A DNA stretch of 51,534 bases. It comes from an uncultured Candidatus Saccharibacteria bacterium (GTDB lineage: Bacteria; Patescibacteriota; Saccharimonadia; Saccharimonadales; JAGQMS01). The position numbers and the translations under genes are program-made. Below are positions 21,437 to 29,601 of this stretch, in pieces; the stretch's first letter is position 1; every line of letters starts with the position of its first letter. Under the pieces are notes generated by a model. It worked only from the letters and a program-made list of their open reading frames with translations. It ran no database searches and had not been told where the DNA came from. The stretch covers positions 75,363 to 126,896 of the forward strand of contig CAZKOX010000001.1 in NCBI GenBank assembly GCA_964554485.1, given 5' to 3'.

Positions 21437-22015
21437 ATGTTGATTCCTACAGTTATTGAGACAGATGGTAGAGGTGAGCGAGCGTATGATATTTATTCTC
21501 GTCTTTTAAAAGACCGTATTGTTTTTGTCGGTGAAGATATCGAACCGCATACCGCTAATCTGATTATTGCTCAAATTCTTTTCCTAGAAAACGAAGATCC
21601 CAAAAAAGACATAATTATGTATATCAACAGCCCGGGCGGTTCGATTTATGATGCTTTGGCGATCTATGACACGATGCAATACGTTAAGCCGGATATCCAG
21701 ACCGTTGGTATTGGCCTACAAGCCAGTGCTGCCGCCTTCTTACTATGCTCTGGAACTAAAGGCAAAAGATCAATTTTACCTAATGGAACAGTCATGATTC
21801 ATCAGCCACGATCTGGAACTAAAGGCGTTATTACAGACATGGAAATTAGCCTAAAAGAAGGTCTTAGACTTAAGAAGCGCATGAACGAGATAATGTCGCA
21901 AAATACCGGTCAGCCAATTAAGAAGATTACTGAAGATATGGAACGTGATCTTTGGATGAGCCCAGAAGATGCTAAAAAGTACGGTCTTGTTGATAAAATT
22001 ATTACCAAGAGATAG
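21437..22015 (+). CDS. clpP: ATP-dependent Clp protease proteolytic subunit
   Basis: [19 protein letters not shown]; catalytic Ser (ASAA), His (IHQP), Asp (ERD). Confidence 0.97.
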
Positions 22016-22201: not shown

Positions 22202-25200
22202 TTGAAGGCACAAGCTAAAACTACGACAAAAACAAAAAACTTAAATGTATTAACTAACTCTGGTCGAGTTAGTTTTACTGACGCAAAAGATATTGACCTA
22301 CCAAATTTAGTAGATCATCAAACAAAATCGTTCCAATGGTTCGTTGACGAAGGTCTTGGCGAGCTTTTCGCTGAAATTTATCCGATCGACGACTATACTG
22401 GTACAAAACTATCCCTACGTTTTAAAAGTTATCACTTTGAGCCGCCAAAGATCTCAGAAGCTGAGGCTCGAGAAAACAATGTTAGCTACGACGCTCCACT
22501 AAAAGCTATTGTTGAGTTAACAAATAAGGTTACGGGCGAAGTTAAAGAACAAGAAATCTACCTTGGTGACTACCCATGGATGACAGAGCGCGGTACTTTT
22601 GTAATTAATGGTGCTGAACGCGTTGTTGTTAGCCAGCTGATTCGATCATCTGGCGTTTTCTTTACTTCAACGACTCACGGAGCTAAAAACCTCTATGGTG
22701 CAAAAGTTATTCCTGGACGTGGTGCATGGTTAGAATTTGAAACAGCCGCATCTGGAGCTTTGTACGTCAAGATTGACCGCCGTCGCAAACTTCCAGTTAC
22801 AACTCTACTTCGCGCTCTTGGTATGAGCGACCAACAGATGAAAGAAGCCTTCAAGCACGTCGATAGCGGCGAAGTAAGCTTACTTGATATAACTCTTGAA
22901 AAAGATCCTGCTAAAGGGGCTAATGAAGCTCTAATCGAAGTTTATAGACGACTTCGACCAGGCGATCTTGCAACTGTAGATAACGCCCGTGGTCTTATTG
23001 AAAACATGTTTTATAACTACAAGCGCTTCGACTTCAGTCGAGTTGGTCGTTATAAGCTAAACAAGCGACTTGACCTTGATGTGCCTAACACTGCCGAAAA
23101 CCGAGTTATGCGACTCGATGATCTTACAGCTATCATTGCTGAGATTATTCGCCTTCATAACACTCAGGAAGCAGCTGATGATATTGATTCATTAGACTCA
23201 CGACGCGTCAAACTTGTTGGTGAACAGGTTCAAAGACAATTTAGAATTGGTTTACTTCGAATGGAGCGCAATGCTAAGGATCGAATGAGCATGTGCGAAA
23301 TCGAAACAGTTATGCCAGCTCAGCTTATTAACGCCCGACCAGTGGTTGCGGCCGTTCGTGAGTTTTTTGCTAGCTCACAACTTAGCCAGTTCATGAAACA
23401 GGTTAACCCATTGAGCGAACTAGCTCACAAGCGACGTCTTAGTTCTATGGGACCAGGTGGTCTTAGCCGAGAACGTGCAGGTTTCGAAGTGCGAGATGCG
23501 CACGCTACTCACTACGGTCGTATCTGTGTCATTGAAACTCCGGAAGGTGCAAACATCGGTCTAGTACTTAACCTTGCTGCATATGCACGAGTTAACGACT
23601 ACGGATTTATCGAAACTCCTTACCGAAAAGTAATTAACGCCGTAACTGCCAAAAATGCTGTTGGACATATTGCCAGCGTCAACCTAGAAGACGAAAAAGG
23701 TAAAATCCTTGTAAAAGCTGGAAATAAAATTACTGCAGATGATGCTAAAAAACTTGCGGCTATTAAAACTCAGGTTACATGGCCTGTTAAAGCCAAAGTT
23801 TCAAATGAAATTGTTTATGTAGATGCTTCAGAAGAAAAAAGTGCAGTTATCGCCGGCGCAGGCAACAAAGTCGACAAAGATGGTTACTTCGTTGAAGATC
23901 GAGTTTCGGCGCGCAATCGCCTAGTTGCCGGTGAAGTTGACGCTAATGAAGTTACTCACATCGATGCTTCAGACAAACAAATTGCTGGAACTAGCGCTGG
24001 ACTTATTCCGTTTATCGAAAAAGACTACGTGCTTCGTTCACTTATTGGTTCAAACCAGCAACAACAGGCTGTGCCACTACTACGACCACAGTCACCGATT
24101 GTGGCATCCGGACTTGAAGAAGCTGTTGCTCGAAACTCTGGCCAGTTAATCTTAGCTGAGGCGGATGGAGTTGTCGAAAAAGCAACTGCCGATGATGTAG
24201 TTGTTAAATACGGTAAAAACTCTGTTCACTATCACCCGCTGCACTATGTACGCAGTAACGAAGGCACAAGCATTACTCAGCGTCCAGTTGTTAATACTGG
24301 CGATAAAGTAAAAGCTGGTGACCCAATTATTGAAGGTATGTCAGTCGAGAATGGTGAATTAGCACTTGGTAAAGACGTTACTGTGGCATTTATGCCATGG
24401 GCTGGATACAACTTTGAAGACGCCATCGTTATTTCTAACCGTCTAGTCTCTGAAGATGTTTTAACGAGCATTAATATTGTAGATTACATGACAGAGGTTC
24501 GCGAGACAAAGCTTGGCCCTGAAATTGTTACACGAGATATCCCAAATGTGTCTGAAGACGCTCTTCGACATCTTGACGAAGAAGGTATTGTTCGCATCGG
24601 TGCCGAAGTACATCCTGGCGATATCCTTGTCGGAAAAATTACTCCAAAAGGTGAACAAGAGCTTTCGAGTGAAGAGCGTTTGCTCCGAGCTATCTTTGGC
24701 GAAAAAGCTAAAGAAGTCCGAGATACTTCACAACGCATGAGTAACGGCAAACACGGTAAAGTTGTCGGAGTTAAGATCTTTAGTCGTGCCAATGGTCACG
24801 AGCTAAAAGCTGGAGTTTTGATGCAAGTTCAGGTTTTCGTTGCTCAAATGCGCAAAATTCAGGTTGGTGACAAATTAGCTGGACGACACGGTAACAAAGG
24901 TGTTATTGCTCGCGTACTACCTGCTGAAGACATGCCATTCATGGAAGACGGAACTCCGGTTGATGTAGTACTTAACCCACTTGGTGTGCCGTCACGTAGA
25001 AACATCGGACAGTTGTTCGAAGTTCACCTTGGCATGGCCGCTGCCGCACTTGGTATGAAGGTTGTCTCTCCTCCATTTAACGGTGTTCCTGGCGACAAGA
25101 TTAAAGAACTTCTTGTTCAAGCAGGTCTACCGGAAGATGGCAAGATTCAGCTATATGACGGCCGAACTGGCGATGTTTTCAAAGAGAAAACTGCAGTCGG

Positions 25201-25792
25201 TAAGATGTACATGATTAAACTTGACCACATGGTTACTGATAAGATCCATGCCCGATCAACTGGTCCTTACACAATGGTTACCCAACAGCCACTTGGCGGA
25301 AAAGCTCAAAATGGTGGTCAACGATTTGGAGAAATGGAAGTCTGGGCGTTGGAGGCTTACGGTGCTGCAAATACACTTCAAGAAATGCTTACTATCAAGT
25401 CAGACGACGTTTACGGACGAAGCAAGGCCTACGAAAGCATCATCAAGCGCACACAGATCGAAGGACCAAAAGTTCCGGAAAGCTTTAACGTGCTTGTTAA
25501 AGAGCTTCAAGGTCTTAGCCTGCGAGTTGACTTAGTCGACTCAAAAGAGGGGCAGTTAGTTGATGCCGAAGCAGTGCTTGAGGCAAATATCAAAGACGAG
25601 GCTGCACATCTAGCAGCTGTCGATATGCCAAAAGACTCAATATCTGACATTGATGTTACTGAAGAAGCCGTAGCTGACGAATTTGAAATATTAGATACCG
25701 ATGCTACTGGAGTTCCGATAATCGTTGATGAAGACGATGACACTGACGACACAACAACTACCGATGAAACGAACGAAGGAGAAAACGAATAA
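22202..25792 (+). CDS. rpoB: RNA polymerase beta subunit (TTG start)
   Basis: FIINGAERV-like motif, rif-cluster SSQLSQF..HKRR, GDKLAGRHGNKG, GGQRFGEME. Confidence 0.98.
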   Translation: MKAQAKTTTKTKNLNVLTNSGRVSFTDAKDIDLPNLVDHQTKSFQWFVDEGLGELFAEIYPIDDYTGTKLSLRFKSYHFEPPKISEAEARENNVSYDAPLKAIVELTNKVTGEVKEQEIYLGDYPWMTERGTFVINGAERVVVSQLIRSSGVFFTSTTHGAKNLYGAKVIPGRGAWLEFETAASGALYVKIDRRRKLPVTTLLRALGMSDQQMKEAFKHVDSGEVSLLDITLEKDPAKGANEALIEVYRRLRPGDLATVDNARGLIENMFYNYKRFDFSRVGRYKLNKRLDLDVPNTAENRVMRLDDLTAIIAEIIRLHNTQEAADDIDSLDSRRVKLVGEQVQRQFRIGLLRMERNAKDRMSMCEIETVMPAQLINARPVVAAVREFFASSQLSQFMKQVNPLSELAHKRRLSSMGPGGLSRERAGFEVRDAHATHYGRICVIETPEGANIGLVLNLAAYARVNDYGFIETPYRKVINAVTAKNAVGHIASVNLEDEKGKILVKAGNKITADDAKKLAAIKTQVTWPVKAKVSNEIVYVDASEEKSAVIAGAGNKVDKDGYFVEDRVSARNRLVAGEVDANEVTHIDASDKQIAGTSAGLIPFIEKDYVLRSLIGSNQQQQAVPLLRPQSPIVASGLEEAVARNSGQLILAEADGVVEKATADDVVVKYGKNSVHYHPLHYVRSNEGTSITQRPVVNTGDKVKAGDPIIEGMSVENGELALGKDVTVAFMPWAGYNFEDAIVISNRLVSEDVLTSINIVDYMTEVRETKLGPEIVTRDIPNVSEDALRHLDEEGIVRIGAEVHPGDILVGKITPKGEQELSSEERLLRAIFGEKAKEVRDTSQRMSNGKHGKVVGVKIFSRANGHELKAGVLMQVQVFVAQMRKIQVGDKLAGRHGNKGVIARVLPAEDMPFMEDGTPVDVVLNPLGVPSRRNIGQLFEVHLGMAAAALGMKVVSPPFNGVPGDKIKELLVQAGLPEDGKIQLYDGRTGDVFKEKTAVGKMYMIKLDHMVTDKIHARSTGPYTMVTQQPLGGKAQNGGQRFGEMEVWALEAYGAANTLQEMLTIKSDDVYGRSKAYESIIKRTQIEGPKVPESFNVLVKELQGLSLRVDLVDSKEGQLVDAEAVLEANIKDEAAHLAAVDMPKDSISDIDVTEEAVADEFEILDTDATGVPIIVDEDDDTDDTTTTDETNEGENE

Positions 25793-28700
25793 TGATGCGA
25801 CGTTACGACCACGGAACAAACATTGCCGACTTTGATGCGGTACGACTAACAATTGCTAGTTCAGAAGATATTTTGGACTGGAGCCATGGTGAAGTTCTAA
25901 AACCAGAAACAATTAACTATCGTACTCAGAAACCTGAGCGCGACGGATTGTTCTGCGAAAGAATCTTCGGACCTGCAAAAGATCTAACTCAGCACGATGC
26001 CAAACTTAAAGGTATTAGGTCTCGTGAAGTTGCTGTCGATAAAAAAGGTGAAATTGTCACCAAAACTATAGTTCGACGCGAACGTATGGGTCATATTACG
26101 CTTGCCGCTCCAGTTTCTCACATCTGGTTCCTTCGTGGCACTCCTAGTCCAATCGGTCTAGTCCTAAACATGACTGTTAAAAACCTTGAAAGAATCGCTT
26201 ACTTTGCTAGCTATGTTTTCCTAAAAGTCGACGAAGCAAAACGCGACCAAATGCTTGCTGACAAAGAAGCTGAATTCGAAGCAGCAAAAGTTGCTATCAA
26301 GGCTCGTTTTGAAAAAGAAGCTTCCGATGAAAAAGCCGACGTTAAGGCGCTTGCTGAAGCTCAGACAAAAGAAATTGAAGAGCTAACAGAAAATTACTTA
26401 CAAACCAAAGAACAGCTATCCAGCCTTGTACTTCACGCACTTGTTCCTGAAACTGACTTCCGAAACATGCCTGACGATATTCAGGATCTTGTCGAAGTTG
26501 GAATGGGTGGTTCTGCTATTAAGGCTATGCTTGATACTGTCGATCTTGGAAAACTAATCGAGGACCTAAATAAAGAAGCAATTGAAGCTAAAGGTCAACG
26601 CAAAAAGAAGATCATGAAGCGACTTCGAATGCTTGAAAACATGCATCGTTCTGGCATCAAGCCGAACAGCATGTGCGTGACGGTTCTTCCTGTAATTCCT
26701 CCAGACCTTCGTCCTATGGTTCAGCTGACTGGAGGTCGGTTTGCTACTTCAGATCTAAACGACCTTTATCGTCGAGTTATTAACCGAAATAACCGTCTTA
26801 AGAAGTTGGTTGATCTAAATGCACCAGAAATTATTCGTCGTAATGAACAGCGAATGCTTCAAGAAGCCGTTGATGCACTAATCGACAATAGCTCGGCTCG
26901 CAGTGGACGTGCTGTTAGCACCACTGGACAACGCCGACGTCTAAAATCGCTTAGCGACATGCTAAAAGGCAAGCAAGGCCGATTCCGACAGAACTTGCTT
27001 GGAAAGCGTGTTGACTACTCTGGTCGTTCGGTAATCGTAGCTGGCCCAGAACTTAACATCCACCAGTGTGGTCTTCCAAAAATGATGGCTCTCGAACTAT
27101 TTAAACCTTTTGTGATTGGTCTTCTAATTGAACAAGACATTGCCCATAACATTCGTGCGGCAACAAGAATGATTGAACTTGGTGAAACAGTTGTTTGGGA
27201 TGCACTTGACGAAGTCATTAAAGGAAAATACGTACTTCTAAACCGTGCACCAACACTTCACCGACTTGGTATTCAAGCTTTTCAGCCAAAGCTGATCGAA
27301 GGAAAAGCTATCCAACTTCACCCGCTGGTTTGTAAGGGCTTCAACGCCGACTTCGATGGTGACCAAATGGCCGTGCACTTGCCGCTAAGCGACGCAGCGC
27401 AGGCCGAAGCTCGTGACCTTATGAGTGCTAGCCGCAATATTCTAAAACCTGCCGACGGTACTCCTGTACTACACATTACTCAAGATATTGTGCTTGGTTC
27501 TTACTACATTACTTACGACCGCTATCCAGATAAGAAGCGTCGAGCATTCTCGTCAGTTGACGAAGCTTTCTTCGCCTACGAAGCCGGTAATCTACTAATT
27601 CAGGATCCAATCCGAGTTAGTTTCAGAGGTGAGGTTTTAGAAACTTCACTTGGTCGAGTTCTATTTAACGAAATCTTCCCAGAAGAATTCCCATTCCAAA
27701 ACGAAGCTATGACCGCCAAAAAACTTCAAAAAGTTATGGCATTGGTTTATAGAACTCTTGGACAGGAAAAAACTGCTGAAATTGCCGACGAACTAAAGAA
27801 CATTGCCTTTTACTATGCAACACTTTCTGGCCTATCGATGGGTATGGAAGACTTTGTTCCTATTGACGGTCTTAGTGACGTAATTAAAGAAGGTGAAAAA
27901 CAAGCTGCTTTGATTTCTGTTCAGTATGATCAAGGCTTCATTACCAATGAAGAACGTGCTCGTTTGACTATCGATAACTGGGAAGCGATCGACGCACGTG
28001 TTCAGAAGATGCTTAACACTCAAATGGAAGGCATCGACAATAGCATGTCAATTAGCGTTACTTCTGGTGCTCGTGGATCGCTTTCAGAAATGAAAAACAT
28101 CGTAGGTATGCTTGGAATTCTTTCTGACGCTACTGGACGCGAGATTGAGCTACCAGTTAAGAACGGCTTCAAACAAGGTCTTACGACTTTGGAATACTTT
28201 ACAGGTGCTCGTGGAACACGTAAATCGCTAGTCGACATTGCTCTTCGTACTGCCGACTCAGGTTACCTAACAAGACGATTGGTTGATGTTTCGCAAGATG
28301 TCTTTACTGTTGAAGACGAAGATCACGATCCAGGCTTTACAATGCACAAATCCGATGCTGCCGAACTTGGAATTACTCTAGGAACTCGTCTGCTCGGACG
28401 TTACCTTGCTGAAACTCTAAAGATTGACGGCAAAATGATTGCCCGCCGCGGTGATCTTGTAACTAGCGAGCTTGCAGAAAAGATCGATGCCTCAGAAATA
28501 GAATCTATTAAGATCATGAGTGTACTTTCGACCTCATTGGTTCGTGGAATCCCACGTAAGAGCTATGGACTTGATCCGGCAAATGGTCAGCTTGTTGTTA
28601 CGTCTCATCCGATTGGCGTTATTGCTGCTCAAAGTATTGGTGAACCTGGTACACAGCTAAGCCTTGACTCTAAGCACCGTATTTCGGTTATTGAGGATAA

Positions 28701-29601
28701 CACCGCTCAGGGTCTTACTCGTATCGAAGAGCTTTTCGAAGCTCGAACTCCAAAAGGTCAGGCGTATCTTACTGATATTGCAGGTAAGGTTAAGCTTTGG
28801 GAAGAAGGCGAAAACTACGTCGTTCAGATTACAGGAAAAGATCAAAAACAGACTGTGCTTGAAATCGGTGGACGTGTGCCTAAAGTTAAGGCCGGCACAG
28901 AAGTTTCAATCGGTGATGTCGTAGCTTCAGGTGATGGCGGCGAAAACCCACTTGTCACGCCAGTTTCTGGATCTGTCGAAATATCGGCAACTGAAATTAT
29001 TGTCACTCCACACGAAACAGCCTCTGTAAAATACGAAATCCCAGGATTTAAACAATTGTTAGTTAAAGACGGCGATATTGTTGCTCAGGGAGATCGCCTA
29101 ACCAGTGGTTCGATTAACCTACAGGAACTAATGCGCCTTAAAGGTGTCGAAGAAACTCAGCGCTATATTGTCAACGAAGTTAGCCGTATCTTCGCTAACC
29201 AGGGTCAGCTGATTTCTGACAAACACCTTGAAATTGTTATCCGGCAAATGTTTAGTCGGGTTCAGGTTGAGGATGCTGGAGATAGTCAGTTCGTTATTGG
29301 TGATATTGCTTCCCGTGCTGCGGTTGTTGAAGAGAACCTTCGTCTAATCGAAGCCAAGCAAGAACCAGTTGTCTACACACAGTTACTTCTAGGAATTACC
29401 AAGGTTTCGATCTGGTCAGACAGCTTCCTATCGGCGGCTAGCTTCCAGGATACAACAAGAGTGTTAATCTCAGCTGCAACTAGTGGAAAGCTAGATCAAC
29501 TCCACGGTCTAAAGGAAAACGTCATCTTAGGTCGCAAGATTCCAGTTGGAACTGGAGTAGTAAAAGAAGAAGTCGTAACTTCGGTTGCGGAAGAAGCTTA
29601 A
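25792..29601 (+). CDS. rpoC: RNA polymerase beta' subunit
   Basis: NADFDGD catalytic motif, [11 protein letters not shown], bridge helix [11 protein letters not shown]. Confidence 0.98.

Follow-up and report, generated by a model that had tools for sequence, protein, structure and literature searches.

Among the moving parts of all cellular RNA polymerases (RNAPs), the trigger loop and the bridge helix are conserved best, and they underlie current models of catalysis, fidelity and pausing as well as the action of several antibiotics. Can the helix of this loop that faces the incoming nucleoside triphosphate (NTP) be rewritten in an essential enzyme, and what changes with it? The question is raised by the rpoC gene (positions 25792..29601, + strand) of a 51,534-nucleotide stretch, referred to below as the window, of contig CAZKOX010000001.1 from an uncultured Candidatus Saccharibacteria bacterium. 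An original prediction, made from the letters of the window, held that the trigger loop encoded by this gene is strongly divergent, which is confirmed by translation and by gap-free alignment with Escherichia coli. What is new here is that the loop variant changes together with the bridge helix.

The First Trigger Helix Is Rewritten

Window positions 28639-28746 (+ strand) translate to a 36-residue peptide, residues 950-985 of the β' subunit, which comprises the trigger loop with its trigger helices and runs from GEPGTQ to ELFEAR. The loop had been placed at 28639-28740; the start was right, but the end falls two codons short of the peptide quoted with it. There is no gap between GEPGTQ and His936 in the alignment with E. 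coli (residues 925-937), and the residue equivalences are therefore firm; E. coli numbering is used throughout. The core of the first trigger helix, SLDSKHR (28660..28680, + strand), corresponds to E. coli 931-937 (TMRTFHI). It is followed by a 10-residue tip devoid of glycine (28681..28710, + strand) and by GLTR (28711..28722, + strand), which opens the second trigger helix in place of GLPR. In this segment the differences from E. coli β' are T931S, M932L, R933D, T934S, F935K, I937R, G938I, G939S, and GLPR to GLTR, with H936 kept. Arg933 is thereby exchanged for Asp, and positive charges stand at 935 (Lys) and 937 (Arg).

The exchange of R933 for Asp and of F935 for Lys, the disappearance of the GG hinge, and the change of GLP to GLT had all been called correctly. 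The statement that only the His is kept went too far, since His936 is accompanied by two further retained features, Gln929 and a hydrophobic side chain at 932; the latter is Leu, which is the order-wide state. Measured against a canonical loop, the peptide has the expected Met/Leu at 932, His936 and Gln929 (L, H and Q), while the Arg/Lys at 933 is Asp, the aromatic residue at 935 is Lys, Gly938-Gly939 is I-S, and the Pro of GLPR is lost in GLTR. Nor is it a loop of the RNA polymerase II (Pol II) or archaeal type (TLNTFH, with Asn and Phe at the equivalents of 933 and 935), Asp and Lys being present instead; sister families of the same order do carry that motif. The tip reads ISVIED. I938 and S939 are confined to this genus and G939 is present in 36 of 37 SLDSKH sequences, so that the loss of the GG hinge holds for this genome as a genus-specific trait. 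A tip without both glycines is a further, genus-level change.

Elsewhere, the catalytic and NTP-binding residues agree with E. coli. Unchanged in β' are R352, R425, N458, D460/462/464, R731, K781, T790, R798, Q929 and H936, with the NADFDGD catalytic Mg-binding motif (27343..27363, + strand) intact, and conserved in β are R678, E813, D814, K1065, K1073, R1106 and H1237.

SLDSKH Is Found in about a Quarter of the Order

A degenerate pattern, GEPGTQ followed by six codons and His, was used to scan 401 genomes of the order Saccharimonadales and matched 352. Among the 150 of these 352 matches that were listed, residue 933 was Arg in 57 cases, Lys in 49, Asn in 14 and Asp in 30. When the order was scanned again with the pattern restricted to Asp, 98 genomes were returned: 83 with SLDSKH, 7 with TLDVFH, 3 with TLDTFH and 5 with TLDTKH. 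SLDSKH is therefore present in 83 of the 352 genomes with a readable loop (ca. a quarter of the order; one of them, G280, is marked unpublished), and in 16 of 71 family codes (f1, f4, with 23 of 23 genomes, f5, f28, f31, f32, f36, f37, f48, f50, with 19 genomes, f52, f61, f62, f63, f69 and f70). The early guess that the variant is lineage-wide rather than strain-specific is thus upheld.

The SLDSKH peptide is invariant in the 83 genomes, while its codons vary: Ser931 is encoded by both TCN and AGY, all six Leu codons occur, Asp is GAC or GAT, and Lys is AAG or AAA. Invariance in the face of such synonymous variety points to strong purifying selection, which would hold the SLDSKH state in place. 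Within a single genus (g128; genomes G343, G332, G288 and G353), Ser931 is encoded by AGT, AGC and TCG. A switch between AGY and TCN takes two nucleotide changes and passes through Thr or Cys; the pattern is one of serine codon switching under selection for Ser.

Mishanina et al. reportedly described the loop Arg in 2017 as "conserved in bacteria". In a scan of 301 genomes of the phylum, with denominators that count the genomes scanned rather than those with a readable loop, residue 933 was D or N in this genome and in 6 of the 14 genomes from its order. One of two genomes of the same class has such a residue as well (TLDTFH), as do 2 of the 284 from other classes. The latter two both have N and belong to one family; Asp933 was not found among the 284 genomes of other classes.

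Bridge Helix and Second Trigger Helix Vary in Step with the Loop

The bridge helix is encoded by window positions 28183..28299 (+ strand; 39 residues, 798-836, corresponding to E. coli 768-806). Its canonical segment D785-T786-A-L-K-T790 reads D-I-A-L-R-T here, E. coli T786 being replaced by Ile816 (28237..28239, + strand). The rpoB-rpoC genes were taken from genomes of every loop type, columns were numbered by E. coli MG1655, and 110 rpoC and 65 rpoB sequences were searched for columns with a residue shared by 90% or more of the SLDSKH rows but by no more than 10% of the canonical ones. Only loop positions 931, 933, 934, 935 and 937 and bridge-helix position 786 were returned. The latter is the only column outside the loop that is fully specific for SLDSKH: all 37 SLDSKH rows have Ile, and all 28 canonical rows have Thr. 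With the thresholds relaxed to 80% and 15%, three more bridge-helix changes (A775G, A779T and G782A) emerged, as did a single column of the second trigger helix. Where GLPR has its Pro, 29 of 29 SLDSKH rows have N, S or T, and 69 of 69 other Saccharimonadia rows have P. By helix geometry, bridge-helix positions 775, 779, 782 and 786 (i, i+4, i+7 and i+11) are one face of the helix; 931, 934, 935 and 938 are a stripe on the first trigger helix, and 937 is i+4 from 933.

No state-specific column was found in the 65 rpoB sequences at either threshold. The search thus gave no sign of a compensating change in β, and the NTP-pocket residues of this subunit are unchanged. One residue of the rpoB product is nevertheless unusual: the position of E. 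coli β M1107, which adjoins the γ-phosphate-binding R1106, is Arg. Of the 15 SLDSKH rows compared in this column, 1 has R, and all 28 canonical rows have M, with rpoB of the same genus lying outside the comparison. Judged by its position, this Arg could bring an extra positive charge near the NTP.

The pairing of the loop with bridge-helix residues 785 and 786 was counted in 99 non-identical rows. All rows that have neither D nor N at 933, i.e., those with R or K, have D785-T786 (50 of 50). The Asn loops TLNTFH and TLNVFH go with DT (5 of 5) and ST (2 of 2), respectively. Asp933 together with Phe935 is accompanied by S785 in 9 of 9 rows, and Asp933 together with Lys935 by DI in SLDSKH (29 of 29), by ST in the Nanosyncoccus type (2 rows), and by DT in two loci (L160 and L108). 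Across the 99 rows, an acidic residue at 933 never coexists with both D785 and F935. The codon series AGR, AAR, AAY, GAY (R, K, N, D) consists of single-nucleotide steps, and every state is present in the order.

Two further combinations were observed. TMRTKH, in which Lys935 is found with Arg933 kept and a canonical bridge helix, is present in L232 (genome G049, family f45) and in contig C1 of G400, and F935K can hence occur without D933. Bridge-helix K781, whose Ala mutant fails all catalytic assays, is described as invariant (PMC3077646); in the Nanosyncoccus-type clade (TLDTKH[G/S]SG; L027-L146, e.g., L102 and L143, and L219/L220), which comes from metagenome-assembled genomes (MAGs) of animal gut, rumen and oral origin, it is Gln in 29 of 31 rows, beside D785S.

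Similar pairing was seen in archaea. A scan of 141 genomes of one Woesearchaeota order gave 110 matches, of which 100 have N at the equivalent of residue 933, six have D and four have R; Lys at the equivalent of 935 was seen in six (two with D and four with N). The TLDTKH loop is paired with a bridge helix of the M-D-V type (T786V) in 3 of 3 loci, which are possibly close kin, while T786 is kept with TLNTKH and VLNVKH (3 of 3 loci) and with TLDTFH (13 of 13); a single TLDYFH locus has V at 786. The combination of TLDTKH and T786V would thus resemble the SLDSKH pairing of Saccharimonadales.

The SLDSKH State Is Scattered over the rpoC and rpoB Trees

An rpoC gene tree (99 rows, 815 columns) was calculated with IQ-TREE under the simple LG+G4 model from residues 360-1262, after masking of the loop and the bridge helix. 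SLDSKH is found at three separate positions within one well-supported 72-row clade, inside which no intermediates between the loop states were seen. At least 21 changes at residue 933 are required on the 99-row tree, and the fewest changes of loop state amount to four. The TLDTKH clade has TLDTFH (L101) as its sister, and the TLNVFH, R and K lineages branch off below these two.

One genus of family f31, g167 (L153 and L155, from genomes G225 and G363; also G321), is fully canonical, with TLRTFHK, DT and GLPR, and nests among the SLDSKH sequences of its own family. The 7-row f31 clade that holds both states has a support of 99 in the Shimodaira-Hasegawa-like approximate likelihood ratio test on the rpoC tree, and the rpoB tree also places L153 inside f31. 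This genus has either, as it appears, reverted completely or kept the ancestral state.

Forcing SLDSKH and g167 into one clade costs 90 log-likelihood units on rpoC (50 taxa, 809 columns; p = 0.008 in the approximately unbiased, AU, test), and the same constraint costs 92 units on rpoB (69 taxa, 1155 columns; p-AU = 0.029). These tests were run with the -fast option of IQ-TREE, so that the constrained trees may be suboptimal, which would overstate the rejection. As a single SLDSKH clade is rejected by rpoB and by the remainder of rpoC alike, we conclude that the states have switched several times. Neither the switching, nor the intermediate states within the order, nor the change of the bridge helix along with the loop was covered by the original prediction.

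Exchange of the bridge-helix/trigger-loop module between lineages by recombination was also considered. The 171 columns of the module do not reject a single SLDSKH clade (p-AU = 0.50), whereas the remaining 686 columns do (p = 0.008). The best tree of the module alone still splits SLDSKH into four groups, and we therefore count the AU result for the module as low power and not as transfer. The sliding-window identity of L153 is highest with its own family around the loop, and is slightly higher with a canonical sequence in windows 721-901. Sliding-window identity, the module tree and the AU test together gave no positive evidence of recombination of the module.

An Alternative Design of the Catalytic Helix Bundle Is Likely

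What might such an enzyme do? The prediction had named M932, R933 and H936 as residues in contact with the NTP. They are listed as the NTP-contacting side chains of the first helix in PMC4227799, and the Thermus aquaticus (Taq) data of PMC2874521 agree with this: R1239A and H1242A are each 50-100-fold slower than the wild-type enzyme and F1241A is 3-4-fold slower, while M1238L is as fast as wild type, R1239 being homologous to Pol II N1082. In the native E. coli Michaelis complex, direct loop contacts are made only by M932 (with the base) and H936 (with the β-phosphate), a roll of the bridge helix brings T786 into contact with the NTP base, and R933 does not figure in the main text of the report (PMC13198411). 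The R933A substitution is reported to cost ca. four-fold in E. coli, versus ca. 50-fold in Thermus (PMC3325174). Given these contacts and the small E. coli effect, the loss of R933 may matter less than was assumed in the prediction. R933N is reported to inhibit RNA cleavage (bioRxiv 2024.06.20.599782), and a contact of R933 with the second trigger helix is noted in PMC4756841. Bridge-helix residues 785-790 lie at the interface with the trigger loop, and replacing either D785 or T786 by Ala makes the enzyme less active and changes its misincorporation (PMC3077646); in Pol II, bridge-helix D826 and K830 are near V1094 of the closed loop (PMC10069792).

We consider it likely that the SLDSKH enzymes have an alternative, co-adapted design of the catalytic three-helix bundle (two trigger helices and the bridge helix), which would work by the normal mechanism with its rate, fidelity or pausing shifted. 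The loop would still fold onto the NTP and act as a positional catalyst, since the residues given as direct substrate contacts in recent structures are retained: a hydrophobic side chain at 932 that stacks on the base, His936 at the β-phosphate, Gln929, the basic pocket of β, and the Mg triad. The charge lost at Arg933 may be supplied by Arg937, which is one helical turn away, by Lys935, or by both. Re-packing where the trigger helices meet the bridge helix would most likely shift the folding equilibrium of the loop and, through it, rate, fidelity and pausing. Altered elongation kinetics, which had been proposed for this enzyme, are plausible on this basis.

Several points weigh against such a design. 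Every functional statement on enzymes of this kind is inferred, folding and rate enhancement being argued from conservation and co-variation alone. Two steps are drawn from helix geometry only, namely, a putative i/i+4 salt bridge between Asp933 and Arg937 within the helix, and the re-packing itself, for which F935K, T786I and the changes in the second helix would be responsible. One would expect a negative side chain close to the triphosphate to be unfavourable, and the yeast Pol II substitution F1084K is a loss of function (PMC10069792). Lys935 occurs without I or V at 786 in the Nanosyncoccus-type TLDTKH loops, in L160 and L108, and in the archaeal TLNTKH loops, where T786 is kept; Arg937 is not universal either, the loop of family f52 being SLDSKHT. 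Finally, an independent-pairs test of D933 against an altered bridge helix found six pairs and was underpowered (median p = 0.125). On average 3.8 pairs changed in the same direction, none in the opposite one, and 2.2 showed no difference, which is concordant but not significant.

The same data allow a bolder proposal, which we put forward tentatively as one possibility. The canonical set (TLRTFH/DT/GLPR) and the SLDSKH set (SLDSKH/DI/GL[S/T/N]R), which are ca. 10 residues apart, a substrate-contacting residue of the bridge helix and the bacterially conserved Arg among them, may be two discrete and mutually exclusive co-adapted solutions within Saccharimonadia, with at least four jumps between them, one apparent full return, no sampled intermediates, and partial convergence in Woesearchaeota, which are ultra-small archaeal symbionts. 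If true, this would be a natural bistable epistatic landscape in the active center of an essential enzyme, and the second state would be expected to show measurably different elongation chemistry.

Relaxed constraint and drift would remove the need for any co-adapted design. In small-population, tiny-genome episymbionts the Arg may have become dispensable, and the other changes may be neutral hitch-hikers. The lability of residue 933, with R, K, N and D all present, is what this explanation requires, and both the mild effect of R933A in E. coli (PMC3325174) and the absence of R933 from the main text of PMC13198411 agree with it. However, SLDSKH is invariant over its 83 genomes and 16 families, where synonymous change is free, and the linked changes are confined, among ca. 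2400 aligned columns, to the bridge-helix stripe and the second trigger helix. The states are discrete, the rule that pairs D933 plus F935 with S785 holds in 9 of 9 rows, and a similar pairing recurs in archaea. Drift alone explains the lability of 933 but not the invariance or the confinement of the linked changes, and we regard it as an unlikely explanation.

A rebuilt loop could also be an allele that has spread because it confers resistance to an inhibitor. Many Saccharibacteria live on Actinobacteria. Streptolydigin-like or other RNAP-targeting compounds of such hosts, or else a phage or host protein, would be the agents; we know of no inhibitor for these organisms. The changed residues line a known drug pocket, and the patchy occurrence of the state on the rpoB and rpoC trees is as expected of a selected allele. 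The published evidence on streptolydigin (Stl), to which the prediction had inferred altered sensitivity, is in conflict: a modelled complex of the elongation complex (EC) with GreB and Stl (EC-GreB-Stl) places M932, R933 and F935 beside Stl (PMC11724273), while according to PMC3957892, M932, R933 and H936 take no part in Stl binding and slow mutants are more, not less, sensitive. Moreover, there is no positive sign of recombination of the module, whose own tree keeps SLDSKH in four places. We therefore judge resistance to be an improbable origin of the variant.

With Asp933, Lys935 and the change of the NTP-touching T786 held invariant in a large lineage, nature has supplied an experiment that can tell which contacts an RNAP cannot do without and how its loop is coupled to the bridge helix. 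The series R, K, N, D and D plus K within one order, together with the D785S rule, provides concrete residue couplings to probe. The variant also bears on the action of RNAP-directed drugs in Patescibacteria and on transcription in symbionts with reduced genomes.

The Locus and the Integrity of the Gene

The rpoC product is 1269 amino acids long. It contains Rpb1 domains 1-5 in order and at full length (Pfam PF04997, PF00623, PF04983, PF05000 and PF04998), and matches solved bacterial β' chains with E = 0. A single rpoC match is present in the 660-kb, 23-contig, 96.9% complete genome; this, together with the intact frame, rules out a second rpoC copy or a pseudogene. The gene is plainly that of a genuine, essential β' subunit of a Saccharimonadales (Saccharibacteria, Patescibacteria) bacterium, and its annotation stays rpoC. 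It lies directly downstream of rpoB (22202..25792, + strand; 1196 amino acids, TTG start, with no column that tracks the loop state), and the rpoB stop and the rpoC ATG overlap as TAATG (window 25790-25794). The rpsL, rpsG, fusA and tuf genes come after rpoC, and clpP (window 21437-22015), not rplJ/rplL, is immediately upstream of rpoB. A loss of Gre factors, considered as a possible correlate, does not apply to this genome, which encodes GreA (PF01272).

Window positions 28400-28950 were recovered with no differing letter and no gap in one contig each of four sequencing runs from four studies (wastewater, freshwater, activated sludge and sludge; any one of them is possibly the source), and the corresponding 21-residue loop segment was recovered for a genome of the same genus (G001) too. 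No RNA data set was listed for the stretch, which has no bearing on its expression. A sequencing or assembly error, which the prediction itself had named as a way to be wrong, or a decaying gene copy thus has practically no chance of being the explanation, given the single-copy intact frame, the identical DNA in contigs of four studies, and a core that recurs in 83 genomes of the order.

Occurrence in Public Genomes and Literature

A pattern scan with one genome per GTDB species gave at least 120 loci. Among the matches listed, 104 were bacterial rpoC, 12 archaeal RpoA'', and 4 were chance matches outside rpoC. The 104 rpoC loci among the matches listed comprise 52 TLDTKH, 48 SLDSKH, 2 TLDVFH, 1 TLDTFH and 1 TMDTKH; 73 are labelled Saccharimonadota, 30 lack a phylum label, and 1 is labelled Dormiibacterota. 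The SLDSKH rpoC of L059 (DATLRC010000006.1), labelled Dormiibacterota, nests among Saccharimonadales sequences, and the RpoA'' of contigs L058, L092 and L130, labelled Methanosarcinales, is Woesearchaeota-like; all four are likely mis-binned or mislabelled MAGs. Genomes G376 (contigs C12 and C118), G400 (C1 and C22), G238 and G718 have two loop matches each, one of them of another type, e.g., TMRTFH; two loop types in one bin suggest contaminant contigs. Stop codons break the rpoC frame of L069 (CAVUMM010000008.1) just beyond the SLDSKH core, which looks like insertion or deletion errors of a long-read assembly. A literature search, limited in extent, found no paper on the trigger loop or bridge helix of Saccharibacteria, Patescibacteria or the candidate phyla radiation, and the variant is apparently not in print.

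Comparison with Known Trigger Loops

In the canonical bacterial system of loop and bridge helix (E. coli β' 926-941 and 1131-1147; T. thermophilus/aquaticus M1238, R1239, F1241 and H1242), the loop occupies the same position between the same GEPGTQ and ELFEAR flanks. The variant loop has the length of the short form without sequence insertion SI3 and shares Gln929, the hydrophobic residue at 932, His936, NADFDGD and the basic pocket of β. It differs in R933D, F935K, T931S, T934S, Arg at 937, the loss of Pro from GLPR, T786I, and positions 775, 779 and 782, to which the loss of the tip glycines is added in this genus. With the Pol II/archaeal loop (yeast Rpb1 L1081, N1082, F1084 and H1085) it shares Leu at the Met position, and exactly the Pol II motif, TLNTFH, is found in other families of the same order (14 of the 150 matches listed), its Asn being one nucleotide away from Asp. 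The variant has Asp and not Asn, and Lys and not Phe. Pol II retains bridge-helix D826-T827 and the proline of VPR.

Two published cases come closest. Yeast Pol II N1082A (the equivalent of R933) is lethal and becomes viable when combined with F1084I (the equivalent of F935) (PMC3325174). The same two positions thus interact genetically, which parallels the natural combination of D933 and K935; the yeast pair, however, consists of laboratory Ala and Ile substitutions, whereas the natural state comprises ca. 10 further residues. The variation of the Deinococcus loop that tunes RNA cleavage (PMC4756841) is a precedent for natural, non-catalytic substitutions that change the properties of RNAP. 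Those changes spare M932, R933, F935 and H936, whereas in the Saccharimonadales enzyme the NTP-facing helix itself is rewritten.

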